This document shows positions 5,606-43,600 of a stretch of 64,000 nucleotides of DNA, one piece after another; position 1 is the first letter of the stretch; every line of letters starts with the position of its first letter. The DNA is taken from assembly GCA_964531105.1 (NCBI GenBank), contig CAZHFN010000002.1:38322-102321 (forward strand), written 5' to 3'. The notes below the pieces were generated by a model. It did not search any database. It saw only the letters and a program-made list of their open reading frames with translations, and was not told where the DNA came from. This stretch comes from an uncultured Treponema sp. (GTDB lineage: Bacteria; Spirochaetota; Spirochaetia; Treponematales; Rectinemataceae). A program made the translations under genes and the position numbers.

Positions 5606-8248
5606 ATGAACGTTTTTCTGGAGCCTGCAGGTATATTTGCCGTCGTGATGGCCGTCGGCCTGGTAGCCCCTTATTTATCCGACAGGATAGGAATACCGGT
5701 AGTAGCCTCAATGACCTTGGCGGGAATCCTGCTTGGGCCGGAACTGCTGGGACTCCTGGAACCCGGCGCCCTGCTTCAGCTCTTCGGTTCTCTCGGCCTC
5801 GTATTTGTATTCTTCAGCGCCGGAGCCGAAACCAATCTGGGAATCATCAAGCGGCGCCCCCTTCCCAGCATTCTCTTCGGGTTTCTTACATTCGTCCTCC
5901 CCTTCGCCGCCGGATTCATCTTCGGCTATTTTTTCTTCGGACGAACAATAGTCTCCGCCCTCATCCTGGGAGCCTTTTTCGCCTCCTCGGGATCCAGGAT
6001 GTTCGCCGGACTTCTTCGCCAGGACCTCTTGGTAAGGGAATCCTCGGAAATAGGCGTGGCAGGTGCCGGCTTGTCGCGAATCGCCGTAGCCATCCTGCTC
6101 TTTGTCTCCAGTTTCACAGCAGCTGATCCGCTCATACTTCCTTCTCTTTCCACCATTGCGCTCTGGCTTCTCTATTTTCTTGTCCTTGGCTTCTCCCTGC
6201 CTCGCTTCGCGCCCTTCGTTCTGCGCAGCATGCGCACCCAAGGCGGGATCGATGCAATGTTCCTGCTTTTTCTTATTTATGCCAGCGCAAGCCTCGCTAG
6301 CCTCCTGGGACTCCCTAGCTACCTGGGAGCCCTGTATTCGGGCATGCTGCTTTCCACATCCCTTTCCTCATCCAAGACCATTCCCTCCCGGATAGGGCTG
6401 CTGGGTGAATCCTTCTTTCTTCCCTTTCTCTTTGTTTTCATTGGAGCCTCAGCCAATTTCTCCCAGATCCAATCCCTGCCCAGGGTCCTGCCTTTCATCG
6501 TGGCTTCGGTATTCCTGGGTCTGGGCTCCAAGGTTCTTGCCGCTTACATCACAGGCAAGGTCTTAAGGCTTTCGCCTGAAGACCGTGGACTCCTCTTCGG
6601 CTTTTCTTCCTGTTTTTCAGGCTTTTCCCTGGCCACCGCCTCTGTGGCTGGCAGTTCGGGCTATTTCGATCAGCCCCTCCTCGGGGGCGCGGTGATACTT
6701 ATAATACTTTCCAGCAGTCTCACTTCGCTTGCAGCCCGGCATTCAGGCTCGGCATTGCTCCGAAGGAATCTTGGCGAACCTGCGAAGTCACAGAGAAAGG
6801 CTACAAGCAGCGAGGGCTCTGATCCAGATCAGGGGACAGCTAAGCCATGGAGCCTAAAACCAGAGCTTGGCCGGGCAAAAGAACACCAAGCCCGAAGCGG
6901 TTTTAACCACGGGGTACGCCGAATTCTCATTGCCCTCTCCAAGCCCGCATCCGCCCATTTTCTTATGGAACTGGGGGAAACCCTCCAGAACAAAGGTTCC
7001 TCCTCTCCCCTCTATCCCCTTGTCGTGATTTCTGAACAGGAAAACGAGCAAAGAGGAAGGGCTGAGACGATGCTTGCTGCGGCGATAATGAGGGGCTTGG
7101 ATCCCCAAACCCCTGTAAGCCCTCTCTATAAAGTTGAAATGAACGCTGCCAGCGGAATCCTCCAAAGCGCCCAGGAGCAGGGGGCTGACACTATCCTCGT
7201 GGGCTGGCATAAGCCACCCCGTCTCGCCAATGCCTTTTTCGGTTCGGTGATAGACCAAATTCTCAACTCAAGCGATCTGAGGATACTCGTGGCAAGACTG
7301 GTATCTCCTCTCCATTCCTCCCACATTATCGCCGTCCTTCCACCTCTTTGCTCCAGCCATGAAGGCTTCCATGGAGCCGTCTCTATTCTGGAATCCTTGG
7401 GTAAGAAGCATCAAGCCAAGGTGCATCTTCTGACCCTCAAGGGGCATGGATCCAGTCTATTCAAGTCCCTGAGGGAGTCGGGCTGCAGCCTTAGTATCAT
7501 CCCCATCGAGATGGATACCTGGAAGGATATAAAAAAGGCTCTGGCTACCATACCCGGGCAATCGAGATTTTTCCTTCTTTTCAGCGCTCGCCCTTCCGAA
7601 CCATCCTGGCACCCTGCCGTGGAGCGTCTTCCCCATAGAATTGGCGAGGAATTCCCCCAATCCAACCTAATGATAATCTACATGGCCAGAAAGCAAGAGC
7701 CTTTCTTGGCGGGAACTATTTCGTCATCGGGAGAATCCCTCGAGGCCGAAAATCTCAGCACTCAAGCGCGGGATAACTACGCTGAGCGGAGTGCGAGTCC
7801 TGCCCTCATGGGTATCCTGGAAACAGCCCTAGCCCAGGGAACCGTGCGGGTGAACATGAGGCATGGTGCCATAGCCGATGGTATTTTCGAGCTGGTTTCC
7901 TCAGCCTTTCCCTTCGACAGGAGAGTATCCAGCAGACTGAGCAATCTTCTCACCGAAAACGTCCAGCGCCAGCCCATTGAGATTTCCCCCGGCATCCTCC
8001 TCCTGCACGAGCGCTTGGAAGGCATAAGGAGCCCTATCGTCTGCCTGGGGTCCCAGCGTCAGGGTTTCAGGATATCCCTGTTGGAGAAGCCAGCTAAAAT
8101 CCTCATCATCATTCTCGTACCCGAAGACGAAAAACCCGAAGGACATCTCGCCCTCCTGGGGGACATCGCAAGCCTCTTTAGGAAAAAAGACCTGGGGCGC
8201 CGCCTCCTGGAGGCTGAGAAACCCGAAGATCTACTGCCCCCGGCTTAA
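5606..8248 (+). CDS. CPA2-type cation/proton antiporter fused to USP-like and PTS EIIA(Ntr)-like domains
   Basis: 880 aa. About 385 aa of polytopic Na+/H+-exchanger-like TM region and a charged linker. USP-like region (ILVGWHKP ... FFGSVIDQILNSSDLRILV). C-terminal about 140 aa align by eye to PtsN: GILLLHERLEG vs GIAIPHGKLEE, and ILVPEDEKPEGHLALLGDIA vs LLVPADQTKTHLHTLSLVA. Confidence 0.8.
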   Translation: MNVFLEPAGIFAVVMAVGLVAPYLSDRIGIPVVASMTLAGILLGPELLGLLEPGALLQLFGSLGLVFVFFSAGAETNLGIIKRRPLPSILFGFLTFVLPFAAGFIFGYFFFGRTIVSALILGAFFASSGSRMFAGLLRQDLLVRESSEIGVAGAGLSRIAVAILLFVSSFTAADPLILPSLSTIALWLLYFLVLGFSLPRFAPFVLRSMRTQGGIDAMFLLFLIYASASLASLLGLPSYLGALYSGMLLSTSLSSSKTIPSRIGLLGESFFLPFLFVFIGASANFSQIQSLPRVLPFIVASVFLGLGSKVLAAYITGKVLRLSPEDRGLLFGFSSCFSGFSLATASVAGSSGYFDQPLLGGAVILIILSSSLTSLAARHSGSALLRRNLGEPAKSQRKATSSEGSDPDQGTAKPWSLKPELGRAKEHQARSGFNHGVRRILIALSKPASAHFLMELGETLQNKGSSSPLYPLVVISEQENEQRGRAETMLAAAIMRGLDPQTPVSPLYKVEMNAASGILQSAQEQGADTILVGWHKPPRLANAFFGSVIDQILNSSDLRILVARLVSPLHSSHIIAVLPPLCSSHEGFHGAVSILESLGKKHQAKVHLLTLKGHGSSLFKSLRESGCSLSIIPIEMDTWKDIKKALATIPGQSRFFLLFSARPSEPSWHPAVERLPHRIGEEFPQSNLMIIYMARKQEPFLAGTISSSGESLEAENLSTQARDNYAERSASPALMGILETALAQGTVRVNMRHGAIADGIFELVSSAFPFDRRVSSRLSNLLTENVQRQPIEISPGILLLHERLEGIRSPIVCLGSQRQGFRISLLEKPAKILIIILVPEDEKPEGHLALLGDIASLFRKKDLGRRLLEAEKPEDLLPPA

Positions 8249-8340: not shown

Positions 8341-11300
8341 TTACTGATTCTTTATGAGCACAAACTCCACGCGCCTGTTCTTCCAGCGGTTCTCCACGTC
8401 GAAGAAGCTCACTACAGGCTCGCTAGAACCTAAGCCCTCTACGCTCAACCTTCTTGGATCCACCCCGTTGCCCACCAGCATTGTGCGCACCAGCTCGGCC
8501 CTACCCGTGGAAAGGGGTATGAGCTCCTTGGTTTCCTCGGTCTGGATCCTGGCCTGGGAGTAACCCAGCATCTTGGCTACGTTGTTGGCATGACCCTCGA
8601 TCCTCACGCGGTAGTCCGGGAACTTGTTGAGAATCTGGGCAATACGGGCTACCACTTGTTCGTTGCGTGCCACTATCTCCGCCGACAAGCCTACAAAGTC
8701 GGCATAATTAGCCCTGAATACTATGGATGGCACCTTTATCTTGAGCCTGTCGCCGTCCCGTATAACTAAAACATCCACGGCGATAATCCCGCTCACCTCG
8801 GTGCTGTTGCCCAGCTGATCCCTGGCTACAAAGCTGAAGCGGTAATCGGTAGCCGACTCCACAAGCTCTCCCTTGGGCGACTTGCCGTCCCAGGTGATCG
8901 CTGCAGGGGGCTTGCCCTTGCCGTCCCAGGACGCGAAGAGCCTTTCGGAACTCACCGCATTGGGGTTGCTCGATTCCACCACCGCGGTCTCGAACACTTC
9001 CAGCTTCCAGTCTACCACGCCCGCAGAAGAATCCACCTCTATGCCGAAGGTGAGCCTGTCGTCCATCCCGTCATCATCGGGACTGAAGTACTCGGGCCTC
9101 ACGGTTATGCTCACGCTGGGAGGATCTACGTCCACTAAAACCGGCAGGCTCGTCGCCTGGGCCACATCGCCCTTCTCATAGGTTACCACCAGCTTGCCCA
9201 CATACTCGCCCTGCACCACTTGGCCCTGGAGATCCCTGCCGTCCCACACCAGGCGGGCCGGTACATCGGAACCCGAGCCTCCGAAGAAGCTTCTCTCCAC
9301 CCCTTCGGGATCCAGGAGGGAGAAGCGCCAGGATTCTATTCCCTCGCGCTTTTCAACGATTATCGTAAAGGATACTTCGTCACGGATTCCATCGCCGTTG
9401 GGCGACATACCCGTGTCGGAAGCCGTGACGTAGACTCTAGCCGTGGAGGCGTCCACCCTGATGCCACCAACCCTTGCTGATGCTGCGTTGCCCGCCAGGT
9501 CACTGGTACCGACTTCATAGGAGTAGACTCCATCGCCTACCACCCTGCCTGCCGTATCTTTGCCGTCCCAGACAAAGCTGCGGGCTTCATTCTTCCAGGT
9601 CCAGCTGCGCACTACAGTTCCTGCAGCATTGCGCATTCTGCCCGTCCAGTCATCGCCCAAACTGGAGTTTTGGGTAATGGTGATCGTGTCCTTGTTGCCA
9701 TCCCCGTTGGGCGAGAAGAGCATGGGTGCCGCGGATACGGAGATGCGCGGCCCCACCGTGTCGATAAGAACCTTGGGGCTGGCCAGGTTAAAGAGATCGT
9801 CGTTGCTGTAAAGAATCCTGGCCGCCACCTGGTATTCGCCATCGGGGGCCATGATGCCCGAATCTGTCCTGCCATCCCAGACATATTGATCCCTAATATC
9901 CGCCCTTCCCCTCCAAGCCTTTACGGGACTGGATTGCCTGCTGCCCGTCGCATTGAGGGAGAATACTGCGATTTCAAACTCGGCGATCGACTGGGGCTTG
10001 GGAGCCGCAATATTGATGTAGAGAGAATCCTTCACTCCATCGCCATTGGGACTGAAAGCCCGCTGATCCACCTCGAGCCTCACGGCCTTGCTGGCAGCAT
10101 CCACTTCTATGGGAAGTCTGGCCGACACAAAGCTGTTTTCCGCCTGGTCTATGGAGCGCAGTTCATAGAAATACTTGCCATCAGGTGCTTGGCCTCCGGC
10201 CTGATTTCTGCCGTCCCAGCTCACCAAGGGCAGGGAGCCTTCCCAAGTCCAGTATCTCACTATCCTCTCGCTGGAATCGATTATCTGACCCTGCCAGAGA
10301 TCTCCAGGAACTGCTTCCTGAATTATGTCCACCGTATCCGATCTGCCATCGCCGTTGGGGGAGAAAATGGAGGTGGAAAGACGCAGAGTGGCCTGGGGAG
10401 CGATCCTGTCCAGCACCAGGGGACCGATTTCCTGTGTATGTAAGTCGTCATTGGAGTAGAGCACTCTGAGCCGAGCATAATAGGATCCGTCTGGAGCAGG
10501 AATTCCCGAATCCGTAAACCCGTCCCAGTAATATTGGGTCCGGATATCTGAAGAGCCCTTCCAGCTCTTGACCGGCAGGGAAGAATCTCCACTGCCCGAC
10601 TGTACAATGAGAAGCTCGAAATTCTTGATTCTCTCGGGATACTGGGCTCTCACACCCATTAAAAGCCTGTCCCTCTTGCCGTCCCCATTTGGGCTGAAGG
10701 CCTGGGCATCGGCATCGAGGCGGACCGTCTTTTTCTCGGTTTCCACGGCTATTAGCATTTCTCTGCTCAGGGTTCTATTGCCCGCCTGGTCTACCGCTTC
10801 CGCCTGGTAGCGGTATTTGCCGTCCCGCACTATGGCGCCAGTCTCATCCCTTCCGTCCCAGGTAAAGCCCTTGGCCTCATTCTTCCAACTATAGGTTTTG
10901 ACAACCCTTCCATCCTGAGCCTTTATGCTGGCCTGCCAATCATCGCCAGGGAGTGAATTCTGTCGGATTTCCACAGAATCGGATCGGCCATCTCCATTGG
11001 GGGAAATGATGTCCAGCGTGGCCGCAACTTCTATTTTAGGCGCTATCCTGTCCAGAAGGAAACTGGGCGTGGGCGCATCGATCTGGTCGCCGTTGAGGTA
11101 ATTCACCCTGATGGTGGCGGCATAGCGGCCGTCAGGAGCCTGTACGCCCGAATCGGTCTCGCCCCTCCACTGGATGCGCTGGGGTGCCGAACCTGTACCA
11201 CGCCAGGTCCTCACCGCCGACAAGGCAGCCTGCCCATCCTGAGCCATGATCGCGAGTTCGTAATCCTTCACGCGCTCAGGGGCCTGTATAATGATGCCAA

Positions 11301-14300
11301 TACCCAATTCATCCCGCTGGCCGTCGCCATTGGGGCTGAAAGCCCTCTGGTCTATATCCAGCCGGACTGCCTTCTTTTCGGTTTCCACAGAGACCGGCAG
11401 CCTGCTTGAACTGTAACTATTGCCACCTGCATCGGTGGACTTCAATTCGTAATAGTAGGTTCCATCGGCTACGATAGCCTGGGAAGAATCCCTGCCGTCC
11501 CAGACAAGGGCTTCCAGCGCTTTATCCCAGGACCAGGTTCTGAGTACCTCGCCGCCTGCGCTGCTGATAGTCGCCTCCCAGGCATCCACAGGAGTAAGAG
11601 CTTCCTGGGCAAAGGTGATTGCATCCAAAATGCCGTCGTCATTGGGCGAGAACAATTTGGCCGAGAGAGAAACGGTTGCCCTGGGAGCTATTCTATCTAC
11701 CGTAAAGGGGCCTACTGTTGTTTCAGCCCTGTCTCCATTGGGATACGCGAGACTCATGATTGCCGAATACTCTCCGTCAGGAACGGCAATACCCACATCG
11801 GACTGTCCATTCCACTCGAAGTTTCTGGGCAATACTGTAGCGCCTTGCCAGGATCTCACTGCCTTGGATTCTCCGGTTGCCACAGCCGATGTGCCGGCAA
11901 TTATCCACATCTTCCAGGACTGTAGCCTGGAAGAAGAGGTAGCGTCGGCGCTCAAGATCAGGTTGTCCCTGACCCCATCCCCATTGGGACTGAATGCCAG
12001 ATTGTCAGCCGCGAGCCGTAGTTCCTTCTTGAGCGTATCCACTTCAAATCCCAGCTCCTTGGAGCTGAAGGCGTTGCCGGCCTTGTCAGTGGAAGAAACT
12101 ACGTATCTGTAGGTGCCATCGGGTACCAAGAAGCCATTGTCCCCTTTACCGTCCCAGTCGAGGGCAGCCGGGCTACCCTGGAACTCCCAAGTTTTCACTT
12201 TAATTCCTGCAGAGTTGAGAATCGCCGCCGACCAGAGTTCTTCACTGGAACCCTTCTGCTCGATTCTCAACACAGCCTGCTCGGGAGTTCCCGAAGGATT
12301 GAAGGCCACCTGGGCCGATTTAGCCTCCGCCGATGGATAAGCCCTGTCGAGCACCATGACCGAGCTTTCGACAATGCTGGAGAAGCCATTGATATAAGCC
12401 AGTTCAAGCCGAGCCTTATACGTTCCGTCTGGCAGCGCTGATCCGCTCCCAGCCTTGCCGTCGAATACATAGCGATCGGCCAGGATCTCGCCAGTGGCCT
12501 TGGGATGAGCCAGCACTTCCTTGCCTGGTCCCTCATTACCAACAATAGAGAATCTCCAGTCGCTCAATCCCTCGAGGGTTTCTACCTGGGGAGAGATCGT
12601 CAGCGTCTCGGCAATTCCGTCGCCATTGGGGCTAAAAGCCTCCCTGTCCAGACGCAAGCCCGAAGCGGGCCGTCTGGTATCCACCCGCACAGGGGCTGAA
12701 CTGACGGCGAAGCTATTGCCCGCCCTATCCACGGCGAACACATACATTTCATATTCGCCATCGGGGACTACCCTGCCCTGGTCATCCTTGCCGTTCCACT
12801 CCAGGGATTCGGGCAGATTCTGTGAATAGCGCCGTACAACCTTCTCGTTTTTCCGGGAATCCCTGATTATCAAATTCCAGGTATCCTCCTCCGATGAATC
12901 GAAGGCAAACACGAAACCGTCCCTGGCTCCATCGCCATCGGGGCTGAAAATTGTATTCTCATCAGCCAGCTTCACGGTAGCCGAAGGGGGTGTCCTATCC
13001 ATATAGAAGGGAGAGCTGAACTTAGTCTCCCCATAGCCGTTCCTGTACTCATAACTCACCAGCGCCTCATACTGGCCGTCGGCGAATGCCTGACCGGCTT
13101 CGGAAAAACCCGAGAACGTATAGGACTTCTCAGGAGGACTGTCGGCTCCGCCCCATACACGCCACACCTTGGTCTTCTCAGGGTTGTGCACCGCCACTTC
13201 CCAGCTGCTGAGGTTTTCAAATGATTCAAAGGCGGGAATAATAAGAAGCGAATCGCTGATGCCATCGCCGTTAGGACTCATCACCACCCCGTCGGTGGCA
13301 ATGGATACCTGAGGTCTTCTGGTATCGACAATAATATTGCGTACTTCGCTCTGGGCAGGGTTGCCAGCGTCATCCTTGGCGGAAAGCTTCAAGCTGTAAC
13401 TGCCGTCCGGAGCCCTACTGCCATCATTGGCCGTGCCATCCCATTCGAAGTCTGCTGGAGCACTCCTGTCCGCATACTCCCGAGAGCGCACGAGATTGCC
13501 GTTTATATCGAAAATTTCTATCTTCCAGCCGCTTTCCACCGATCCAGTATTCCTGAATGCAATACTGTCTTTCTTCCTGTCCCCGTCGGGACTCAGAATC
13601 ATGGTCGGTTCCAGGGATCTGGCGCTCGCCTGCGGTGTCGTACTGTCTACAACCACCGTAAGGCAGCTCAGATAGTCCAGGTTTTCATTGCCGTTATCGT
13701 CCCAAGCCCTTAGGCTTAGGGTATATGAGCCGTCGCGAACCCTGGCGCCTAAGTCGTCCAAACCGTCCCAGCTCACCGAAGTAGGCACGCTCACGCTTTT
13801 TCTCTGGTAGGCCAAGGCCGAACCGAGGGATCCTAAGCTTTGTATCGATTCCACCCTGTCGTTGGATTCGCCGATGGTTCTAACTATCCTGCCCGCCGAC
13901 TTGTCCTCTACGGTAAGTTTCCATCCGGCTATATAGCGCTCGTCGCTGATGGAAACCGGAATTTCCAGCTTGTCCTGCTCGCCATCGCCGTTGGGCGAAA
14001 TGTGGACCGTGCCTCTGTACGGAGCAGGAAGCTCGGCCTTGATGACCGGCGCTGTCCTGTCCCTGAGGCCGAAACTTAAATTTGCGCCGGCACCCAGGGC
14101 GTAGAGCGAATCGTACATGGGGGCTATAGCCATTCCTATACCCAGGCTCGCATCCCTATTTTTCTTGCCGCCCAACTGGATGCCCTTCTCTAGGGGGATA
14201 GTGCCCGATATTCCCAGGCTGGGCAGGAAACTCCGCCCCGACCCGTTGAGAATATCCCGCAAGCCAGCCGACCAGCCCAACCTGAGGGCTACGATATTCC

Positions 14301-15072
14301 TGAATTCGAAGCCAAAAGAGAGATCGAGACCCAGATCCTGGAATGAAGGACTCCAAAGATCCAGCCCCATATCGAGGTTCCAATAATAATTCTGGACAAG
14401 GTAGCTCCTCATGCCCAAACCCAGTGTGAATGCGGAGGGATAGGAGCCCGCAGCACCGCCTAAAATTCCCGTAGTCCCTGGAGTCGAATATCCCTTGCCC
14501 ATATCCAGCAGGGAAAAGCCAAAGCGCGTGTCTTTGAAGGCTCCCAAATCGCCGGCTAGCCAGGTAGCGCCCAAATCCAGGGAAAGCCCCCAGCCGAAAC
14601 CACCCTTACCTCCCATGGTGAGGTCGATGGCGCTGCCAATGTAGAGGCTGGGAAGAATATCCTTGGAAAATATCGCGGTGAGTCCGCCAAAGGTGCCCAA
14701 GGGCATGCTGGACATCGCGCCGGGTACCGAGAAGAACCGCGCTGCGCCTCCCCACACGCCATAGCTGCGGGGAAGAGAAAAGGCCAGAGACGCGGCAGAA
14801 CCCCAGCCCTGGGCTGCGGCTCCGAAGTCGGTGATACCGGTATACGCCGCTTCCAACTGCACAAGCTGGTTGCCGGCTGTCACCGATGGATTCAATAAGG
14901 CTGCCCATGGAGCTGAAGGTCCTGTCACCGTCGGTGTGTGGGCCAGTCCCCAAGGCGAATAGAGGGAGGGAAGAAAGACTCCACCCTTGGGCGGGTTGTA
15001 CCCGAACAGGGGAACTGCGCCGAGCATGACGATAATCAGAATCGCAATCCGAATCTTCTTGAAAAAGGACAT
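8341..15072 (-). CDS. Giant envelope protein: predicted N-terminal beta-barrel + 16 FlgD-Ig-like repeats + C-terminal OmpA-like peptidoglycan-binding domain
   Basis: 2243 aa. Signal-like start MSFFKKIRIAILIIVMLGAVPLFG. About 340 aa Gly/aromatic-rich with alternating hydrophobicity. 16 units of about 100 aa each carry (F/I/M)SP(N/D)GDGxxD ... W(D/N)G ... PDG.Y ... D.AGN. C-terminus RIEGHANNV ... LSTGRAELV ... NRRVEFVLI is an OmpA_C signature. Confidence 0.85.
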   Translation of the reverse strand: MSFFKKIRIAILIIVMLGAVPLFGYNPPKGGVFLPSLYSPWGLAHTPTVTGPSAPWAALLNPSVTAGNQLVQLEAAYTGITDFGAAAQGWGSAASLAFSLPRSYGVWGGAARFFSVPGAMSSMPLGTFGGLTAIFSKDILPSLYIGSAIDLTMGGKGGFGWGLSLDLGATWLAGDLGAFKDTRFGFSLLDMGKGYSTPGTTGILGGAAGSYPSAFTLGLGMRSYLVQNYYWNLDMGLDLWSPSFQDLGLDLSFGFEFRNIVALRLGWSAGLRDILNGSGRSFLPSLGISGTIPLEKGIQLGGKKNRDASLGIGMAIAPMYDSLYALGAGANLSFGLRDRTAPVIKAELPAPYRGTVHISPNGDGEQDKLEIPVSISDERYIAGWKLTVEDKSAGRIVRTIGESNDRVESIQSLGSLGSALAYQRKSVSVPTSVSWDGLDDLGARVRDGSYTLSLRAWDDNGNENLDYLSCLTVVVDSTTPQASARSLEPTMILSPDGDRKKDSIAFRNTGSVESGWKIEIFDINGNLVRSREYADRSAPADFEWDGTANDGSRAPDGSYSLKLSAKDDAGNPAQSEVRNIIVDTRRPQVSIATDGVVMSPNGDGISDSLLIIPAFESFENLSSWEVAVHNPEKTKVWRVWGGADSPPEKSYTFSGFSEAGQAFADGQYEALVSYEYRNGYGETKFSSPFYMDRTPPSATVKLADENTIFSPDGDGARDGFVFAFDSSEEDTWNLIIRDSRKNEKVVRRYSQNLPESLEWNGKDDQGRVVPDGEYEMYVFAVDRAGNSFAVSSAPVRVDTRRPASGLRLDREAFSPNGDGIAETLTISPQVETLEGLSDWRFSIVGNEGPGKEVLAHPKATGEILADRYVFDGKAGSGSALPDGTYKARLELAYINGFSSIVESSVMVLDRAYPSAEAKSAQVAFNPSGTPEQAVLRIEQKGSSEELWSAAILNSAGIKVKTWEFQGSPAALDWDGKGDNGFLVPDGTYRYVVSSTDKAGNAFSSKELGFEVDTLKKELRLAADNLAFSPNGDGVRDNLILSADATSSSRLQSWKMWIIAGTSAVATGESKAVRSWQGATVLPRNFEWNGQSDVGIAVPDGEYSAIMSLAYPNGDRAETTVGPFTVDRIAPRATVSLSAKLFSPNDDGILDAITFAQEALTPVDAWEATISSAGGEVLRTWSWDKALEALVWDGRDSSQAIVADGTYYYELKSTDAGGNSYSSSRLPVSVETEKKAVRLDIDQRAFSPNGDGQRDELGIGIIIQAPERVKDYELAIMAQDGQAALSAVRTWRGTGSAPQRIQWRGETDSGVQAPDGRYAATIRVNYLNGDQIDAPTPSFLLDRIAPKIEVAATLDIISPNGDGRSDSVEIRQNSLPGDDWQASIKAQDGRVVKTYSWKNEAKGFTWDGRDETGAIVRDGKYRYQAEAVDQAGNRTLSREMLIAVETEKKTVRLDADAQAFSPNGDGKRDRLLMGVRAQYPERIKNFELLIVQSGSGDSSLPVKSWKGSSDIRTQYYWDGFTDSGIPAPDGSYYARLRVLYSNDDLHTQEIGPLVLDRIAPQATLRLSTSIFSPNGDGRSDTVDIIQEAVPGDLWQGQIIDSSERIVRYWTWEGSLPLVSWDGRNQAGGQAPDGKYFYELRSIDQAENSFVSARLPIEVDAASKAVRLEVDQRAFSPNGDGVKDSLYINIAAPKPQSIAEFEIAVFSLNATGSRQSSPVKAWRGRADIRDQYVWDGRTDSGIMAPDGEYQVAARILYSNDDLFNLASPKVLIDTVGPRISVSAAPMLFSPNGDGNKDTITITQNSSLGDDWTGRMRNAAGTVVRSWTWKNEARSFVWDGKDTAGRVVGDGVYSYEVGTSDLAGNAASARVGGIRVDASTARVYVTASDTGMSPNGDGIRDEVSFTIIVEKREGIESWRFSLLDPEGVERSFFGGSGSDVPARLVWDGRDLQGQVVQGEYVGKLVVTYEKGDVAQATSLPVLVDVDPPSVSITVRPEYFSPDDDGMDDRLTFGIEVDSSAGVVDWKLEVFETAVVESSNPNAVSSERLFASWDGKGKPPAAITWDGKSPKGELVESATDYRFSFVARDQLGNSTEVSGIIAVDVLVIRDGDRLKIKVPSIVFRANYADFVGLSAEIVARNEQVVARIAQILNKFPDYRVRIEGHANNVAKMLGYSQARIQTEETKELIPLSTGRAELVRTMLVGNGVDPRRLSVEGLGSSEPVVSFFDVENRWKNRRVEFVLIKNQ
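9450..12030 (-). repeat. Four tandem about 645-nt (about 215-aa) di-domain super-repeats inside the giant gene
   Basis: Two Ig-unit types alternate. The A unit follows V(E/D)T(E/L)KK.VRL and ends LDRIAP; the B unit ends VETEKK or VDA. A-type SPNGDG codons sit near 11985, 11335, 10690 and 10045; B-type near 11640, 10990, 10350 and 9700. DNA copies are diverged (about 70% identity by eye). Confidence 0.7.
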
Positions 15073-16200: not shown

Positions 16201-16433
16201 AGAAGCTCCATTGCTGCTACATTGAAGATACTTCATCAGTATCGTCATATGAGCCTGGAAGCTTGACTGTTCGCATCTGATGGCAACTTTTTCTCCTCAG
16301 GGGAAGAAAATTCCCATCGACTCGATTTTCTCAACCGTTCTCTTTCGAACCAGGGCTCGGCAAAGTATTGGTATAGTTTTTTAATTCTTTATATATAATA
16401 GTAATATAAATTATTACGTAAATATTTTTAATT

Positions 16434-16449
16434 TGGCACATTTCCTGCT
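16434..16449 (+). promoter_or_regulatory. Candidate sigma-54 (-24/-12) promoter
   Basis: TGGCAC-ATTTC-CTGCT matches TGGCAC-N5-TTGCW with correct GG/GC spacing and one mismatch in the -12 block. Preceded by about 60 nt of nearly pure A/T. About 105 nt upstream of ATG 16554. Confidence 0.55.
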
Positions 16450-16553: not shown

Positions 16554-17066
16554 ATGAAAAAAGCACTCATTGCCATCGCGATCGCTTTTCTTGTGGTCGG
16601 CATTGCCGCCGCCCAGCCCTTTGGCCAGTGGAATCAGCCCAGAGGAACCAGTCCCGGCAGAGGCCAGGTACAGACTCCCTGGGGCGGCCGCACCATGGGT
16701 CCCGGAATGGGCCAGACTATGGGTCGTGGAACAGCTTTTCCCTATGCCAGCCTGAGTGTAGAAAAAATCAGCCTAGAAGGGACTCTTGAACTGGTGGATG
16801 CCAGAGTGGCCATCAAGAAGGATAACAAGACCTACTATGTCATGCTCCCTTCGAGGCTCTACGGTTTTGTGGATGGACTCAAGGAAGGCGCATCGGTAAA
16901 GCTCGAGGGTTACTCCCATGCCATTCCTGAAACAGAGAACAGCTTCGCGGTCCGCGTGGATACCCTGGAGTTGGGAGGCAAGAAAATCGACCTCGGCCTC
17001 GATGAAGCAGTCATGGGCCAGAGGCTGGGCTCCATGGGCGGCCGCTCGGGCAAGTGGGGTCGTTAA
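16554..17066 (+). CDS. Small secreted protein with Gly/Met/Pro-rich flanks, unknown function
   Basis: Start chosen at MKKALIAIAIAFLVVGIAAAQ (AGGAG 8 nt upstream). Low-complexity GPGMGQTMGRG and MGQRLGSMGGRSGKWGR flank a beta-rich core (ISLEGTLELVDARVAIKKDNKTYYVMLP). Confidence 0.7.
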   Translation: MKKALIAIAIAFLVVGIAAAQPFGQWNQPRGTSPGRGQVQTPWGGRTMGPGMGQTMGRGTAFPYASLSVEKISLEGTLELVDARVAIKKDNKTYYVMLPSRLYGFVDGLKEGASVKLEGYSHAIPETENSFAVRVDTLELGGKKIDLGLDEAVMGQRLGSMGGRSGKWGR

Positions 17067-22964: not shown

Positions 22965-24326
22965 ATGGATATCGATAACAAATCCGCCGGGGCGTATTCG
23001 AGTGAAGCATCAGCGCTTCACAGGCCCAAGCCCTTCGTCACCATACTGGATGGGGCAGCCCTCGCCTCCAAGCCAATCCGCCGCAAGGCTAGCATCAGAC
23101 AGACAAGCGTAGTCAGGCATTCGGTACGAAAGAGCGGCACCAAGCTGCGATCCTATGCCGGAGAAACCCTGCAGGCAAGCTCAAAGAACATCGCTCTTTG
23201 GATGCGTCGCAGTTTGGCAGGCCTGCTATCCCTGCCCACATCCCTCATCAAGAACCTAAAGGCTAAAAAAAATCCCCGCCCCGATGCACCGGATCCCCAG
23301 CCCCAAACGGCCGAGAGTAAACAAGCCATAAATCCAGCCATCGCCGTGAAGAAGTTTGCCGCTTTTATTGCTGGCATTCCCCTGGACAAAGCCCGGCGTA
23401 TACTGCCCGTTGTCCTGGTATCCTGTATTGTCATCTCGGCTGGCGCAGCCGCTCTTATTGGCGCCGCCCAATTTCCTCTTTCTCCATCCAGCCTCATTCT
23501 GCCCGATGAGGAATCAGCCCAGGCCTTGCTCATGGCCTACATCGCCCCGGAGAGCGCGGAAAAGGAAAACCTACCATCCGGAAGCCTTCCTCCGGTGCCT
23601 GTCACAATTAAGCTGGGCAGCTACACGGTGAGAAGCGGAGACAGCCTGGATAAAATAGCTAAACGCTTTGGCCTACGCCAGGATACCTTGATTTCGGTCA
23701 ACAATCTCCAGAGCGCATCTTCCATACGGGCAGGTATCAACCTGCGCATTCCCAACATGGATGGGGTAAGCCACAAGGTAAGGCGTGGAGAGAGCCTTTC
23801 GTCCCTCTCCAAAACCTTCGGAATAGACATGACAAAAATAGTGGATGCCAACGACCTGGCATCCAGCACAATTGCCGTTGGCCAGAGCCTCTTCATCCCC
23901 AATGCACGCCTGTCCTCAGCCACTCTCAGGCAGTTCTATGGCGAACAATTTACCTGGCCAGTTCGGGGCAGAATATCCTCTCCCTATGGTTACAGGGCTA
24001 ATCCCTTTACCGGGCTTCGTACATTCCATTCGGCCGTCGACATAGTCGTGTCCGTGGGCACCCCCATCAAGGCTACCAGTGACGGCAAGGTAGCCGACAC
24101 TGGCTACAATTCGGTATTCGGCAACTACATAATTCTCAAGCATGACAGCGGATACCAATCCCTTTATGCGCACTTGAGCAGGATCAATGTCAAGGAAGGT
24201 GGCTATATATCCAGGGGTACGGCCATAGGCCTCTCGGGTAATACGGGACAGAGCACTGGTCCCCATCTCCATTTCAGCCTGTTCAAAAACGGCCAGGCCT
24301 TGGATCCGACCAAATACCTTAAGTAG
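22965..24326 (+). CDS. LysM-repeat M23-family peptidoglycan endopeptidase
   Basis: 453 aa. Two or three LysM units (YTVRSGDSLDKIAKRFG; HKVRRGESLSSLSKTFG). M23 motifs HSAVDI and HLHFS. The N-terminal about 200 aa are low-complexity plus one TM; exact start is uncertain. Confidence 0.85.
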   Translation: MDIDNKSAGAYSSEASALHRPKPFVTILDGAALASKPIRRKASIRQTSVVRHSVRKSGTKLRSYAGETLQASSKNIALWMRRSLAGLLSLPTSLIKNLKAKKNPRPDAPDPQPQTAESKQAINPAIAVKKFAAFIAGIPLDKARRILPVVLVSCIVISAGAAALIGAAQFPLSPSSLILPDEESAQALLMAYIAPESAEKENLPSGSLPPVPVTIKLGSYTVRSGDSLDKIAKRFGLRQDTLISVNNLQSASSIRAGINLRIPNMDGVSHKVRRGESLSSLSKTFGIDMTKIVDANDLASSTIAVGQSLFIPNARLSSATLRQFYGEQFTWPVRGRISSPYGYRANPFTGLRTFHSAVDIVVSVGTPIKATSDGKVADTGYNSVFGNYIILKHDSGYQSLYAHLSRINVKEGGYISRGTAIGLSGNTGQSTGPHLHFSLFKNGQALDPTKYLK

Positions 24327-24349
24327 TCCATCGGAATCAACATAGGTGG

Positions 24350-24391
24350 AAAAAAAGATACAGAGCTGAGCCCAGCACTGTATCTTTTTTT
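24350..24391 (+). terminator. Intrinsic terminator after the M23 gene
   Basis: GATACAG-A-GCTG / CAGC-A-CTGTATC hairpin (24357-24384) followed by T7. Confidence 0.75.
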
Positions 24392-24502
24392 ATATCTTTC
24401 TTCATTTTAGACTGAGGCCACATAGACTACAAAATATTTTTATCTAAAATAATTATATATAATAATTGTATTTAAAAAACACAACTCAATACCCGGTTAC
24501 TT

Positions 24503-24518
24503 TGGCACACCCATTGCT
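24503..24518 (+). promoter_or_regulatory. Sigma-54 (-24/-12) promoter upstream of the sigma factor gene
   Basis: TGGCAC-ACCCA-TTGCT matches TGGCAC-N5-TTGCW in both blocks and in spacing. An A/T-rich tract lies at 24385-24480. ATG is at 24542 with GAGGAG at 24531-24536. Confidence 0.65.
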
Positions 24519-24541
24519 AAACACTTAGCGAGGAGTATGCT

Positions 24542-25375
24542 ATGCAACATTTAGCCGCCAACGACGAATCGCTCGCCAGCTATTTCCGCTCTATCAAATC
24601 CATCAGTCTGCTCAACAGGGAAGAAGAAGAAATCCTCTCCAGGAAAATAGCCCAGGGTGATGATACTGCCCGCACTCGACTTATCGAGGCTAATCTGCGC
24701 CTGGTAGTGCGCATTGCCCGGTCGATGTGGAACCCCTCCCTCTCCCTCACCGATCTGATACAGGAGGGGAATATCGGCCTTATGAAGGCCGCAGAAAAGT
24801 TCGACGGCACTAGGAATGTCAAGTTCTCCACCTATGCTGCCTGGTGGATACGACAGTCCATCGGGAGATCCCTGGTCAACACAGGCAGGGCCATACGCCT
24901 GCCCCATCGCAAGGAAGAACTCATTCGCAAAGTGCAGGCCGAACGAAGCATCATGAGCCAAACCCTCCAGAGGCAGCCCACTTCCGGCGAAATATCGGAA
25001 AAGCTGGGCATTCCCGAGAAAAAGCTCAACGATGTACTCATGTTCGCCGAGCACATAGCTGGTTTCGAAGCCCAGGTGGATCAGGACAGCTATACGATCC
25101 TCGATCTCTACGAGGACTACACCTACTCGCCCGAAACCCTCTTCTCCGAAACCATCGTTGCGGAGCAAACCGATCGCCTGCTCTCGGTACTCAAGGAGAG
25201 GGAACGCTATGTGATAAGCCAGCGATTCGAACTAGGCGGTCGCAAGCGCCAATCCCTCAAACGCATGGGAAGCAGGATGGGACTTTCGCCTGAAACCGTA
25301 CGACACATAGAAAAGCGAGCCCTCCAGCGACTCAATACCGAGGCCTCCAAGGGTTACCTCTGCATGACAGCCTGA
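24542..25375 (+). CDS. Group-2 (RpoS-like) sigma-70-family sigma factor
   Basis: 277 aa without region 1.1. Region 2 DLIQEGNIGLMKAAEKFDGTRNVKFSTYAAWWIRQSI is near-identical to the RpoD/RpoS consensus. Regions 3 and 4 are present (LSPETVRHIEKRALQRL). Confidence 0.85.
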   Translation: MQHLAANDESLASYFRSIKSISLLNREEEEILSRKIAQGDDTARTRLIEANLRLVVRIARSMWNPSLSLTDLIQEGNIGLMKAAEKFDGTRNVKFSTYAAWWIRQSIGRSLVNTGRAIRLPHRKEELIRKVQAERSIMSQTLQRQPTSGEISEKLGIPEKKLNDVLMFAEHIAGFEAQVDQDSYTILDLYEDYTYSPETLFSETIVAEQTDRLLSVLKERERYVISQRFELGGRKRQSLKRMGSRMGLSPETVRHIEKRALQRLNTEASKGYLCMTA

Positions 25376-25416: not shown

Positions 25417-26496
25417 GTGGTGGCATCACGAAAATCAGGAAATAAAAGAAAGACCACTCTATTCTCCGGCCAGCGAAATCGACTGATCCTGGCCGTTTTA
25501 TTTATTGCTGCATCCATTATCGCAATTGTCCTGGTAACAACTGTGCAACCAAGCCAGGAGACTGAAGCCCCCAGCCCCTCCACCCTCTGGCCCTACGGAC
25601 TTCCTGAGTACCATGTCGAAGTGCCGGAGGGTTACGAAGGCCTGCTTCCCGCCGAAGAAAGCACAAATACCGAAACGGTTAAGCCGGGAGCATCCGATTC
25701 TGCGGTCATTACTGCCCCCCTTGCAGCCAAGCCCAGCCCCCTAAAGGCTCTGCCCTTTCCAATCGCCCACGCTAAAAGTCCGGACTCTCCCCATTCCGAG
25801 CCTGCCCTCATCATTGTCATCGACGATGCGGGGCACAACCTGGAACAGCTGGAACCCTTTCTCAAGCTCCCTTTTCCACTTACGATCGCCGTGCTGCCAG
25901 GGCTAGCCTATAGCGTCCAGTCAGCCGACCATATACGCGCATCGGGAAAGGAGCTTATTCTGCACCAGCCCATGCAAGCTTTGGGAGGGACAGATCCGGG
26001 TCCTGGCGCCATAAGCCTCGATATGACTCCGACAGCAGCCGCCGAAGTGCTTGCGAGCAACCTAGACAGCCTTGGCAGCGTAGCGGGGATCAACAACCAT
26101 ATGGGCTCGGCCCTCACCAGGGATCCCGAACGAATGCGCGCAGTGCTTGATATTGTCAAAATGCGTGGTATTTATTATCTTGACTCACTTACCTCATCCG
26201 GCACGGCCACTGCGGCCCTCTGCCGTGAGATGGAATTACCTTATTGGGAGCGCGATGTGTTCTTGGACAACTCTGGCGATAAGCAATCCATTCTCCACGC
26301 GCTCGAAGAAGGCAAAAAAACCGCATCTGCCCAGGGCGCCGCTGTAATGATAGGCCATGTTTGGTCGTCTGAGCTCGCCCAAACCCTCATGGATATCTAT
26401 CCCCAACTTGTCGAAGAGGGCTACTCTCTGTCCACCATTTCGCACTACATGATTAAAAGCGCGATGGGAGAAGTCGATGCTCGTCCTGGGGATTGA
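25417..26496 (+). CDS. Divergent polysaccharide deacetylase family protein (YibQ-like)
   Basis: 359 aa. N-terminal TM, LIIVIDDAGHN, LILHQPM and NNHMGS motifs. Confidence 0.8.
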   Translation: MVASRKSGNKRKTTLFSGQRNRLILAVLFIAASIIAIVLVTTVQPSQETEAPSPSTLWPYGLPEYHVEVPEGYEGLLPAEESTNTETVKPGASDSAVITAPLAAKPSPLKALPFPIAHAKSPDSPHSEPALIIVIDDAGHNLEQLEPFLKLPFPLTIAVLPGLAYSVQSADHIRASGKELILHQPMQALGGTDPGPGAISLDMTPTAAAEVLASNLDSLGSVAGINNHMGSALTRDPERMRAVLDIVKMRGIYYLDSLTSSGTATAALCREMELPYWERDVFLDNSGDKQSILHALEEGKKTASAQGAAVMIGHVWSSELAQTLMDIYPQLVEEGYSLSTISHYMIKSAMGEVDARPGD

Positions 26497-27502
26497 GTCA
26501 TCCTGCGACGAGTGTTCTGCTGCAGTTGTTGAGAACGGAAGCAAAATCCTTTCCAACGTCGTGGCCACCCAAATTCCTCTCCATGCACAGTACCAGGGTG
26601 TAGTGCCTGAAATCGCCAGCAGAGCCCATGTGCGCTGGATAGAGGGCATTGTGCGTCAGGCTCTCAAAGATGCTCAGCTAAGCCCTGGATCCCTGGATGG
26701 CCTGGCCGCCACAGCGATGCCCGGTCTCATAGGATCGCTGTCGGTCGGCCTGTCCTTCGCAAAGTCCATGGCCTTTGCCCTGGACAAACCTTTCAAGGGT
26801 GTTAATCACATGCTCGCCCACCTCTATGCCCCCCAACTGGTGGCTCCCGTGGACTATCCCTTTTTAGGGCTTCTTGTGTCCGGTGGGCATTCGATTATCT
26901 GCATAGCAGAGGACTTTGACACAATCCGCATTCTGGGGACTACCATCGACGACGCTGTGGGCGAGGCTTTCGACAAAGTGGCCAGCTATTACGGCTTTGG
27001 CTACCCCGGAGGCAAGGCTATAGATGAGTTGGCGGAAAAAGGCGATCCAACGGCCTTCGCTTTTTCGCCCCCTTCCCTCCACAAGGGTGAGCATCGCTAC
27101 GACCTATCCTATTCAGGCTTGAAAACAGCCGTCATCCATCATCTGGACAGTTTCAGGCGTCCCGGGGCTGCGGCGAGTCCAGAAAATATTGCCGCATCTT
27201 TCAGAAAAGCGGCGATAGATTTTCTACTCTCCAAGCTACTCAAGGCCTCTAAAGATACAGGCGTGAAAAGGATTGTCGCCGGCGGTGGTGTGGCGGCCAA
27301 CGCGTATTTGCGAAGAAGCCTTGCCGCAAGAAGCGATCTCGATGTGCGATTTCCACCCCTTGATTTATGCGGTGACAATGGAGCAATGGTGGCGGGCATC
27401 GCGTATCACTATCTGAAGCGAGGAGAAATCGACGGATTAGGCTTGGCTCCCCAATCCAGAGTGCCCATGTATAAGCGCGCGGTGGATGCAAAGAAATTAT
27501 AA
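26477..27502 (+). CDS. tsaD: tRNA N6-adenosine threonylcarbamoyltransferase
   Basis: 341 aa. LGIESSCDE start, HMLAHL metal motif, VSGGHS, GDNGAM. Confidence 0.95.
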   Translation: MLVLGIESSCDECSAAVVENGSKILSNVVATQIPLHAQYQGVVPEIASRAHVRWIEGIVRQALKDAQLSPGSLDGLAATAMPGLIGSLSVGLSFAKSMAFALDKPFKGVNHMLAHLYAPQLVAPVDYPFLGLLVSGGHSIICIAEDFDTIRILGTTIDDAVGEAFDKVASYYGFGYPGGKAIDELAEKGDPTAFAFSPPSLHKGEHRYDLSYSGLKTAVIHHLDSFRRPGAAASPENIAASFRKAAIDFLLSKLLKASKDTGVKRIVAGGGVAANAYLRRSLAARSDLDVRFPPLDLCGDNGAMVAGIAYHYLKRGEIDGLGLAPQSRVPMYKRAVDAKKL

Positions 27503-40092: not shown

Positions 40093-40608
40093 ATGCAAAC
40101 GACCGCTTCCAGGCAATCGAGTCCCGGCATCGAAAAAATAATCCATACGTACCAAGGGACGCCAGGAGCGCTGCTTAAGGTTCTTGAGCACGTTCAGGAA
40201 GAGGATCCGAAACACTTTCTTTCGGAAACCTCGCTAAGAGAAATCTCGGGATTGATGAAAATCCCACTGTCCCAAGTATATTCCATGGCCACTTTTTACT
40301 CCTTCTTCAATCTTAAACCCCAGGGCAAGCACTCCATAGTAGTTTGCCGCGGGACGGCCTGCCACACCAGAGGTTCATTATCCCTATTAAACGAAGCCCT
40401 GGCACGAATGGGTATACAGGAATTCAAGGAAGAAGAGGAAAATTCAGCTACAAGCCTGGACGGATTCGCATCCATACGCACCGTGGCTTGCTTTGGCCAG
40501 TGCGCCTTGGCACCGGTAGTGCAGATCGACGGGGTGGTAAAGTCCAGGATGACCATAGGTAAATTGGTCACCATCCTGGAAAAGATGAAGAAAGGAGGGG
40601 ACCGATGA
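40093..40608 (+). CDS. hydC: NuoE/HydC-like [2Fe-2S] subunit of [FeFe]-hydrogenase
   Basis: Start at MQTTASRQ (AAGGAGG 5 nt upstream). Thioredoxin-like 2Fe-2S motifs CRGTACH ... CFGQCALAP. Confidence 0.88.
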   Translation: MQTTASRQSSPGIEKIIHTYQGTPGALLKVLEHVQEEDPKHFLSETSLREISGLMKIPLSQVYSMATFYSFFNLKPQGKHSIVVCRGTACHTRGSLSLLNEALARMGIQEFKEEEENSATSLDGFASIRTVACFGQCALAPVVQIDGVVKSRMTIGKLVTILEKMKKGGDR

Positions 40609-43600
40609 AAGCCGTAACCGATCTTGGAAGCCTGAGAAAGGAAGGCCTCTCCCATGTCTTCAACGGAAAGCCCTGGGTTTCTGTTGGTCTGGGCACCTGT
40701 GGTATAGGTAACGGAGCCGATGAAGTTTTTGCGGTTCTCCAGGAAGGCGTAAAGACCGATAAACTGGATGCCAGGGTGCGCAGAGTGGGATGCTTCGGCT
40801 TCTGCGCCGCCGAACCTATTGTGATGATCTACAGGCCAGGCAAGCCGGTGCTTATGTTCTCCGAAGTAAAACCACTCAAAGCCCTATCGCTCCTCAAAGC
40901 CTTAGCCGATGACGCTGCATTCGATAAGGCCGCCAAACTGGCTGAGGCTAAAATAGAATCCTGGGATTTCAGGACTCATTCTCTTTCCTTTGGTGAAGCG
41001 TACCCTTTCCTCCCCTCCTGGAAAGAACTGGCTTTCTTCAAGGGCCAGGAAAAGCTCGTGCTACGAGACTGTGGACTGATCGATCCTGAACAAATCGAGG
41101 AGTATGTCGGAGTAGGCGGCTATACTGGCTTGCTCAAAGCCCTCTCCACCATGACCCCCGACTCGATAATCGAGGAACTCAAAAAATCAGGACTACGGGG
41201 AAGAGGAGGCGCTGGCTTTCCTACGTGGAAAAAGTGGCGGATCATGCGGGACAATGTCCTGGCGAATCCCGGAGAGGCCTATGTCATATGCAACGCCGAC
41301 GAAGGCGATCCGGGCGCCTACATGAACCGCAACGAAATCGAATCGGATCCCCATATGCTCCTGGAAGGCATCATCATTGGCGCCTATGCCATGGGCGCTA
41401 CCAAGGGCATTGTCTATGTGAGAGCTGAATATCCCCTGGCAGTTGAACGCTTCACTAAAGCCCTTGCGCAGGCAAGGGCTGCAGGTCTCCTGGGAAAGAA
41501 TATTCTGGGCAGCAAATTCAGCTTTGACCTGGAAATAGTGACCGGCGCAGGCGCCTTTGTCTGCGGCGAGGAAACCGCCCTCATAGCCTCTATCGAAGGC
41601 AAGGCCGGCAGACCTTCGCCCAGGCCTCCCTTCCCCGCCCAGCAGGGCTTGTACGGAAGACCCACCACAATCAACAACGTCGAAACCTGGTGTAATATCC
41701 CCCTCATACTTGCCCGGGGCGGTGAATACTTCTCCTCCTTCGGGACAGCCAACAGCAGGGGTACCAAGGTGTTCTCCTTCGTAGGCAAGGTGCGCAACAC
41801 GGGCCTCGTGGAGCTACCCATGGGCTCTACACTGGAGAGTGCCGTATACGGAATCTGCGAAGGCATGGGTCCTAAAAAGAAAATCAAGGGTCTCCAGTCC
41901 GGCGGACCATCAGGAGGATGCATACCAGCCTCCCTCTTCAAAACACCCATCGATTATGAACATCTCACCGAATTAGGCGCCATTATGGGGTCAGGCGGCA
42001 TGGTGGTCATGGATCAAGATAACTGCATGGTGGACGTTGCCCGCTACTTCATCAGCTTTACCGCCAACGAATCCTGCGGCAAGTGCACTCCCTGCCGGGA
42101 AGGCACTTCCCAGATGCTGAATATTCTCCAAGGCGTGTCCAACGGGGAAGCCAGCGAACAGGATTTGAAAACCCTGGAATCCCTGGCCTTGGCGGTCAAG
42201 GACTCGGCCCTCTGTGGTCTAGGCCAGACGGCAGCCAACCCAGTGCTTACCACGCTCAAGTATTTCAGGGACGAATACATCCAGCATATCAAGGCCAAGC
42301 GCTGTCCTGCCGGTATTTGTGAAAACCTCTACGTGGCGCTCTGTGAATCCTCCTGCCCCATGCATATGAACATTCCCGGTTATCTCCAACTTCTCAAGGA
42401 GAACAGAATAGAAGACGCATTCGAACTCACCTTGCGGGAAAATCCCTTGCCCGGAGCCTTGGGCAGGATATGCCACTTCCACTGCCGAATGCGCTGTAGA
42501 AGGGACATGCTGGACGAATCTGTGTCCCAGGGCGAGATCCACCGCTATCTGGCCGACTCCATGTACAAGATGGGCAGGGAAAAGACCATCTACAACAAGC
42601 TCATCAAGGAGAAATTGCCTCCCACAGGCAAGAAAATTTCCATTGTAGGCGCCGGTCCTGCGGGACTTTCGGCAGCCTTTTGGCTGAGTCGCTTAGGCCA
42701 CGAGGTTACTGTTTACGAGGCTGAACAGGAAGCCGGAGGCATACTCCGCTGGGGAATCCCCTCCTACAGGCTCCCCAAGGACATTCTCAAGAAGGAAATA
42801 GCCTTCATACAAAAACTAGGTCCTCGATTTATCTTCAATACGAAGATGGAAACTCCCGATCAATGGCAGAGGCTGCTGGACGCATCGGATGCCGTTGTAG
42901 TGGCAGTAGGCGCAGGGCACGAGATAGCCTTGGGCATACCGGGTGAAGATCTGAAAGGGGTTTTTGGAGCAGGGGATTTCCTTAAAAAAATAAGCGAAAA
43001 CCAGAAACCGAAAGTAGGAAGCGAGGTGGTCATTGTCGGCGGAGGCAATTCCGCCATCGACGCAGCCCGCTCTGCCCTAAGACTGGGGGCTTCGGTCACT
43101 ATCGTGTATCGCAGAGCCAGGTCCGATATGCCGGCCAATGCCGAGGAACTCAATGGAGCACTAGAGGAAGGAATCACCGTCCTCTGCATGACCCAGCCTG
43201 TGGAGGTTGTAAGCCAGGGCACAGGGACTGCCCAGCGGGTTAAGGCGCTGAAGGTCCAGCGTATGAAGGCGGGTCCGGTGGACAGTTCTGGCCGTCCTAC
43301 CCCAGTGCCCACCAGTGAATTCTATGAAATACCCTGCGATTCAATAATCGTTGCCTTTGGAGAGAAAGTGAGGATCCCCGGCCTGGAAAACCTCGAGGTA
43401 ACCATGGAGAGGGACGGAAGGCTCAAGGTCGACCCCTACTCGCTAAAATCGGCCAATGACAAGCTCTTTGCCTGCGGCGACGCGGTGATGGGACCTGCCA
43501 CGGCCGCAGAAGCCATGGGGCAGGCCAGGGTGGTATCGGAAGTACTGGATGAAAGCCTTACAGGCCAAAAACGTTTCTTCAAGCTCTTCCGGCATTTCGA

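Follow-up and report, generated by a model that had tools for sequence, protein, structure and literature searches.

A probable sigma-54 promoter, conserved among spirochaetes, directly upstream of an RpoS-like sigma factor gene in a member of the Rectinemataceae

The closest described counterpart of the system considered here is the rpoS gene of Borrelia burgdorferi, whose promoter (TGGCAC-AGTTT-TTGCA) has a mapped start, depends on both RpoN and Rrp2, and is activated by Rrp2 without an enhancer (PMC1976401). BosR binds in the region of the Borrelia rpoS promoter, which requires it in order to be active (PMC3037356). Francke et al. 2011 mention this wiring for Borrelia only, and we found no report of a sigma-54-to-RpoS connection outside Borrelia (Treponema, Spirochaeta, Sphaerochaeta, Brachyspira and free-living spirochaetes), a negative that is weak evidence as literature coverage was incomplete. 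Here we analyze a 64-kb stretch of DNA (the window, 64,000 nt of contig CAZHFN010000002.1) from an uncultured Treponema sp., in which a gene for an RpoS-like sigma factor directly follows a sequence with the form of a sigma-54 (-24/-12) promoter. The source organism is assigned to the Rectinemataceae, a family of the order Treponematales; it is a spirochaete, and the comparison with Borrelia is therefore made within one class. Our analysis supports, at the level of sequence, a new instance of the Borrelia-type circuit leading from sigma-54 to an RpoS-like factor, its added value lying in the breadth of conservation and in a candidate enhancer.

The resemblance to the Borrelia cascade is close in several respects. 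In both cases a spirochaete gene for an RpoS-like factor is immediately preceded by a canonical -24/-12 promoter, both promoters have a T at -27, and one alternative sigma factor gates, or in the window would gate, the expression of another. However, the two systems also differ. Rrp2 is enhancer-independent, whereas the window and about 60 relatives carry a pair of palindromes at fixed positions, suggesting enhancer dependence, and the upstream gene is flgJ in Borrelia (PMC1976401) but NlpD-like in the window. The window, furthermore, has an insulating terminator and a predicted leader of only about 13 nt.

The gammaproteobacterial nlpD-rpoS locus offers a second comparison, as there too a LysM/M23 lipoprotein-type gene lies immediately upstream, and the sigma proteins are about 40% identical. 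Conversely, no -24/-12 element is present in the gammaproteobacterial loci examined, and the window is set apart by its terminator insulation and minimal leader. In Escherichia coli, rpoS is transcribed by sigma-70 from within nlpD, where its main transcript begins, and control is largely post-transcriptional, acting through a long leader.

An earlier note on this DNA had described the element TGGCAC-ACCCA-TTGCT, matching both consensus blocks, just before the start codon of the sigma factor gene, and it is present as described. TGGCAC occupies 24503-24508 and is followed by ACCCA and then by TTGCT at 24514-24518; the whole scores 11/11 against the consensus, with the required 10-bp spacing between its GG and GC doublets, and 23 nt separate its end from the ATG at 24542, the first start codon past an in-frame stop. 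On both strands of the window this is the single exact match to TGGCAC-N5-TTGCW, compared with an expectation of 0.02 from shuffled sequence; at least one exact match arose in 2 of 100 shuffled windows, and sites with one mismatch number five in the window (1.9 expected). The element is also the top match of the window to the position weight matrix (PWM), at 18.7 bits. At the extended positions it has T at -27 (24502), but A at -20.

The case for a functional promoter is carried principally by its conservation in relatives. We fetched 80 loci from species-representative genomes and 80 from metagenomes, and took as a conserved site any GG-N10-GC sequence scoring 9-11 of 11, restricted in the later count to the 300 nt before the assigned start codon. 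The homologues come from Spirochaetota metagenome-assembled genomes labelled Rectinemataceae, Treponemataceae or Spirochaetaceae. Such a site lies just upstream of the gene in all 39 spirochaete genome loci and in none of the nine non-spirochaete loci of the same scan. With the metagenome loci added, it is found in 68 of the 71 loci at protein identities of at least 43%, where the background rate in the same loci (7.5e-5 per position) corresponds to 2% per 300-nt window. It occurs likewise in L033 (43% identity) and in L036-L038, three loci of 37-40% identity titled Spirochaetes or Spirochaetota bacterium. Among about 80 RpoS loci of proteobacteria, Verrucomicrobia and Geobacter there is no such element, save for a weak and distant chance match in L049. 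This pattern strongly supports the earlier proposal, in which a -24/-12 promoter drives the gene as one does Borrelia rpoS.

In the clade to which the window belongs (10 loci, 66-87% identity), intergenic sequence is unalignable outside three blocks, namely the terminator arms, TGGCA[CT]..C..TTGC, and the Shine-Dalgarno sequence together with the ATG. The TGGCA and TTGC blocks have been kept while the flanking DNA diverged beyond alignment, and the purifying selection acting on them provides indirect evidence that sigma-54 is used in these genomes, presumably including that of the window. A profile of 74 sites reads T-TGGCA(C/T)G-N4-TTGC(T/A). The T at -27 (55/74) and the G at -20 (59/74) match the published extended sigma-54 consensus, neither position having played any part in the selection of sites. 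We consider it highly probable that the element at 24502-24518 is a genuine sigma-54 promoter driving the RpoS-like gene, with a candidate enhancer upstream. On the distribution of the motif and of the palindrome described below, a cascade from sigma-54 to sigma-S looks both old and class-wide in spirochaetes.

Transcription is predicted to start near 24529, which recovers the leader of 12-14 nt, holding GAGGAG, that the earlier note had called unusually short. Because in the family-wide 74-site profile the motif most often ends 22 nt before the start codon, this short leader is a family trait and no anomaly of the window; purines are enriched in the same profile at the positions equivalent to the predicted start. 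The spacer upstream of the motif had been described as about 100 nt of almost pure A/T. Its AT-richness is real, the 110 nt that precede the motif having a GC content of 24% where the window as a whole has 54%, but "almost pure" overstates it. A similar composition is found across 73 loci (median spacer GC 27% versus 52%). The sequence of the spacer is unconserved, and its length is conserved in the window's clade.

As judged from its domains and closest relatives, the product is a group-2, RpoS-like sigma factor, although not a certified RpoS. The earlier note had described region 2 of this 277-residue protein as RpoD/RpoS-like. Pfam regions 1.2, 2, 3 and 4 span residues 10-264, region 1.1 and the non-conserved spacer are absent, and the best two NCBIfam models are both RpoS equivalogs (TIGR02394, 224.3 bits; NF004207, 217.7 bits). 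An NlpD-like gene is the immediate upstream neighbour not only in the window's clade but also in relatives with identities as low as about 48% and at gammaproteobacterial rpoS, and most spirochaete loci share the order sigma gene, deacetylase, tsaD. This conserved gene order supports both the orthology of the spirochaete genes and their link to the RpoS family. We infer that the product functions in an RpoS-like manner.

Between the NlpD-like gene and the promoter lies the strong insulating terminator (24357-24391) that the earlier note had reported. It proved to be real: the hairpin at 24357-24384 has a minimum free energy of -25.4 kcal/mol (z = -7.0), and none of 200 shuffles was as stable. 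These values were obtained by direct folding, the simple terminator scan having missed this hairpin. Its outer arms, GATAC-N18-GTATC, are invariant in the 10 loci of the window's clade, at -141 to -146 from TGGCAC, and are unique to this hairpin within the window. The inner stem varies among the clade loci with compensating changes. The distance between hairpin and promoter is constant (141-146 nt) over DNA too diverged to align. No Rfam family reached its gathering score in the whole 64-kb window (no tRNA, riboswitch or known small RNA).

A further conserved feature, the palindrome TGTAT-N8-ATACA, was noticed by inspecting the upstream regions, and its best match was then scored over -250 to -30 in 73 loci. 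It attains at least 9/10 in 46 of the 73, compared with 2.1% of shuffles, and 8/10 in 21 others, a score that 20% of shuffles reach. In about 45 loci it begins between -107 and -115, counted from the T of TGGCAC, with a mode of -111; for the window's clade the corresponding range is -119 to -124, approximately one helical turn further out. A second, weaker copy scoring at least 8/10 is present in 23 of 60 loci (38%, against 2.4% of shuffles), and in 20 of these 23 it is found 33-34 bp upstream of the proximal copy; distal copies at this same offset score 10/10 in L001 and 9/10 in L088. Beyond chance, the window holds no further copies of either the hairpin or the palindrome. The terminator at this locus has as its two arms the inner half-sites of the palindrome pair, ATACA(G) and (C)TGTAT. 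A double role of this kind would explain why GATAC-N18-GTATC is invariant while the inner stem varies, and why the distance of 141-146 nt is constant.

A pair of dyads separated by about three helical turns, at 110-160 bp upstream, has the classic geometry of a sigma-54 enhancer, exemplified by the NtrC sites of glnAp2, and the palindromes are therefore proposed as the activator site. With glnAp2 and its two NtrC sites, and with classic enhancer-dependent sigma-54 promoters in general, the locus shares the number and spacing of the dyads and their fixed distance from the promoter, 100-160 bp upstream; it differs from them in having no IHF site between candidate enhancer and promoter and, within the window's clade, in the fusion of the sites with a terminator. 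An IHF site between palindrome and promoter was considered and rejected, the consensus WATCAANNNNTTR being absent there from all 73 loci. On the analysis of position and spacing, we put the chance that the palindrome pair is a tandem enhancer, and so the candidate binding site of the activator, at about even. As far as we could find, no described enhancer matches TGTAT-N8-ATACA. The outer TGTA...TACA resembles the TyrR/PhhR box (TGTAAA-N6-TTTACA), a resemblance of use as a lead only.

Two other sites in the window also match the sigma-54 PWM. The second best match, TTGGCACATTTCCTGCT at 16433-16449 on the plus strand (17.7 bits), is intergenic and well oriented, approximately 104 nt upstream of a gene (16554-17066) encoding a 170-aa signal-peptide protein without a Pfam match. 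An AT-rich tract precedes this site, as it does at the rpoS-like gene, and TGTAT-N8-ATACA is lacking, so that a different activator would act there. The third match, TTGGCACTGAAATTGCG at 62684-62700 on the minus strand, falls inside the 3' end of an ornithine/aspartate carbamoyltransferase open reading frame, about 200 nt upstream of hflX (61210-62484), and may be due to chance.

Several observations weigh against the interpretation of this locus as a sigma-54-driven, RpoS-like circuit with an upstream enhancer. The motif might be a chance match, with a housekeeping sigma-70-type promoter in the spacer, or read-through out of the NlpD-like gene, accounting for transcription instead. The order nlpD-rpoS is found in proteobacteria too, AT-rich DNA makes many -10-like hexamers available, and one sigma-70-like pair, TAGACT-16-TAAAAT at 24423-24450, scores 9/12. 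However, this weak pair is unconserved and such pairs occur at chance level (2 found, 1.5 expected), in agreement with the earlier view that no convincing -35/-10 pair is present; moreover, a hairpin of -25 kcal/mol with its T-run stands between the two genes, and retention of the -24/-12 element in 68 of 71 loci far exceeds the 2% expected by chance. We regard a chance match as very improbable indeed. Three of the 71 loci are exceptions. One, L114, has no upstream DNA, whereas L107 and L113, termite-gut metagenome contigs of about 47-50% identity, lack the promoter; both have a different N-terminus (MAKVKN...) and a different upstream gene, and they probably form a paralogous subgroup. Furthermore, neither rpoN nor a GAFTGA-type activator is encoded within the 64-kb window. 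Six-frame motif searches of the window for GAFTGA, ESELFG, the RpoN box and Walker A gave no match, Pfam scans of 27 window open reading frames revealed no Sigma54 domain, and GAFTGA/ESELFG was absent from all six frames of the genome loci L001-L080. Within the flanks of those 80 loci, rpoN occurs only in L020 (Spirochaetia bacterium MS502-30), where it lies at 5749-7140, on the same strand as the sigma gene (2746-3573) and 2.2 kb downstream of it. RpoN is nevertheless widespread in Treponematales, including Gracilinema, Breznakiella and T. primitia, and Treponema sp. TIM-1 has both RpoN (P0294) and the module with a perfect promoter (L011); the matches of the RpoN search are labelled Treponema, Breznakiella, Gracilinema or Spirochaetaceae, and none Rectinemataceae. 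A different doubt concerns the product, which could be some other group-2 (SigA-like) sigma factor with a different regulon, making the circuit one from sigma-54 to an alternative sigma-70. Its scores fall short of the curated RpoS cut-offs (378.7 bits for TIGR02394 and 394 bits for NF004207), cyanobacterial group-2 and RpoD models rank closely behind the RpoS equivalogs, similarity in the PDB is about equal, with Firmicute SigA (176 bits) slightly above RpoS (166 bits), and the NCBI pipeline labels homologues RpoD/SigA. Conversely, the two best NCBIfam models are those for RpoS, the nearest non-spirochaete relatives among the genome loci are gammaproteobacterial, Geobacter and verrucomicrobial RpoS proteins (37-42% identity), an nlpD-like gene lies upstream as at proteobacterial rpoS, and, unlike primary sigmas, the protein has neither region 1.1 nor the long spacer. 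We think it quite unlikely that the product belongs to another group-2 type.

The enhancer is open to two further alternatives. The promoter may be real while the clade's GATACAG...CTGTATC / TGTAT-N8-ATA(T/C) is a terminator and nothing else, activation being enhancer-independent, by an activator acting from solution, or dependent on some other site. The copies in the window are degenerate, at 8/10 and 7/10, the former a score that arises in a fifth of shuffles; they coincide with the terminator, and a terminator by itself could account for the conserved hairpin arms of the clade; the compensatory changes of the inner stem are typical of an RNA hairpin; and Borrelia Rrp2 activates rpoS in just such an enhancer-independent way (PMC1976401). 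On the other hand, terminator stems are not normally invariant in sequence over relatives of 77-87% identity, and the distance from hairpin to promoter (-141 to -146) is constant over unalignable DNA. Outside the clade, moreover, the same half-site consensus occurs without a terminator, at a fixed -111 and again 33-34 bp further upstream, and the clade's own offset is shifted from that position by about one turn of the helix. A terminator alone is, in our view, a rather unlikely explanation. The palindrome might also be the operator of another regulator, such as a repressor, a Fur/BosR-like protein or a nucleoid-type protein, in place of the site of an AAA+ activator. That no activator has been identified so far is in keeping with this, as is the binding of BosR around the Borrelia rpoS promoter, where it is required for activity (PMC3037356); the absence of the IHF consensus, likewise, means that another bending protein may be needed. 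Two copies about three helical turns apart, approximately 110-160 bp upstream, are nevertheless the classic arrangement of a sigma-54 enhancer. Moreover, the BosR box of Borrelia, reportedly ATTTAANTTAAAT, is unrelated to TGTAT-N8-ATACA. We judge an operator of this kind improbable.

The arrangement of these elements enables us to propose a model for the regulation of the RpoS-like gene by sigma-54. In this model, the strong terminator would end transcription of the NlpD-like gene and block read-through, and the sigma-54 holoenzyme would bind the -24/-12 element as a closed complex that an AAA+ enhancer-binding protein must remodel. The probable target of the activator would be the tandem pair of palindromes resembling TGTAT-N8-ATACA, which are set 33-34 bp from each other at approximately 110-160 bp upstream of the -24 box, and in the window's lineage the inner half-sites of these palindromes would double as the arms of the upstream terminator. 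The resulting mRNA would start near 24529, with a leader of 12-14 nt beginning at the Shine-Dalgarno sequence. Since remodelling would be required, expression of the second sigma factor would become an on/off decision, gated by whichever signal controls the activator, following the same logic as the Rrp2-RpoN-RpoS pathway of B. burgdorferi.

More tentatively, and with somewhat less than even confidence, we suggest that the locus represents an ancestral RpoN-RpoS module of the Spirochaetia, shared at least by Treponematales and Spirochaetales and by free-living, termite-gut and alkaliphilic members. Such a module would consist of three parts: the -24/-12 promoter, a short leader (about 12 nt) and an undescribed tandem enhancer for an ancestral Rrp2-like activator, its two TGTAT-N8-ATACA copies, 33-34 bp apart, lying at a fixed phase some 110 and 145 bp before the -24 box; Borrelia would later have become enhancer-independent, and in the window's lineage the half-sites would have been recruited as a terminator stem. 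If this is correct, the cascade by which Lyme Borrelia adapts to its host is no Borrelia invention, and conservation of the wiring in dozens of non-pathogenic spirochaete lineages would date the circuit to a free-living ancestor. Cultivable non-pathogenic species, for example Treponema sp. TIM-1, would then serve as models for the input signals, and the palindrome would provide a concrete candidate for the DNA site of the activator, none having been found in Borrelia. The analysis also suggests, for annotation, that the genes of these spirochaetes named RpoD/SigA encode sigma-54-dependent alternative sigma factors.

Table 1. Features of the sigma factor locus, in window coordinates
Feature	Position	Strand	Basis or remark
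LysM + M23 peptidase gene (NlpD-like)	22965..24326	+	Pfam LysM, Peptidase_M23
Distal palindrome-like site GGTGG-AAAAAAAG-ATACA, 7/10, weak	24345..24362	.	34 nt upstream of proximal site; right half is the terminator ascending arm
Intrinsic terminator of the NlpD-like gene	24350..24391	+	A-run, 28-nt stem-loop GATACAG...CTGTATC (24357-24384), T-run
Proximal palindrome-like site TGTAT-CTTTTTTT-ATATC, 8/10, candidate enhancer (upstream activating sequence)	24379..24396	.	Half-overlaps terminator descending arm and T-run
AT-rich spacer, candidate enhancer to promoter	24397..24502	.	24% GC; ~105 nt
Probable sigma-54 (-24/-12) promoter T-TGGCAC-ACCCA-TTGCT	24502..24518	+	Exact consensus, conservation, PWM
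Predicted transcription start	24528..24530	+	C24517 taken as -12, giving +1 at ~24529
Shine-Dalgarno sequence GAGGAG	24530..24535	+	6 nt before ATG; very 5' end of predicted mRNA
RpoS-like group-2 sigma-70 factor gene, 277 aa	24542..25375	+	Pfam regions 1.2, 2, 3, 4
Divergent polysaccharide deacetylase (25417-26496) and TsaD (26477-27502) genes	25417..27502	+	Pfam

Downstream of the sigma gene, the simple terminator scan found no plus-strand terminator, and the deacetylase and tsaD may be co-transcribed with it. The essential tsaD may be partly co-transcribed with the sigma gene or may have a promoter of its own. In Borrelia, BB0769 is gcp/tsaD, which would agree with the gene order of the window.

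Elsewhere in the window, a plus-strand gene at 5606-8248 encodes a fusion protein in which a Na+/H+ exchanger is joined to a universal stress protein domain and to a PTS EIIA-2 domain; this EIIA-2 domain has the fold of EIIA-Ntr, which is encoded beside rpoN in proteobacteria. A minus-strand gene (8341-15072) encodes a 2243-aa protein with many Ig-like repeats of the FlgD_ig/CHU_C/Big_13 type and, at its C terminus, an OmpA domain; this giant protein is probably located at the cell surface or in the periplasm. Finally, the plus-strand genes at 40605-45597 encode a NuoF-like/GltD-like fusion protein followed by the large subunit of an [FeFe] hydrogenase, a combination consistent with an electron-bifurcating hydrogenase and with life by anaerobic fermentation.

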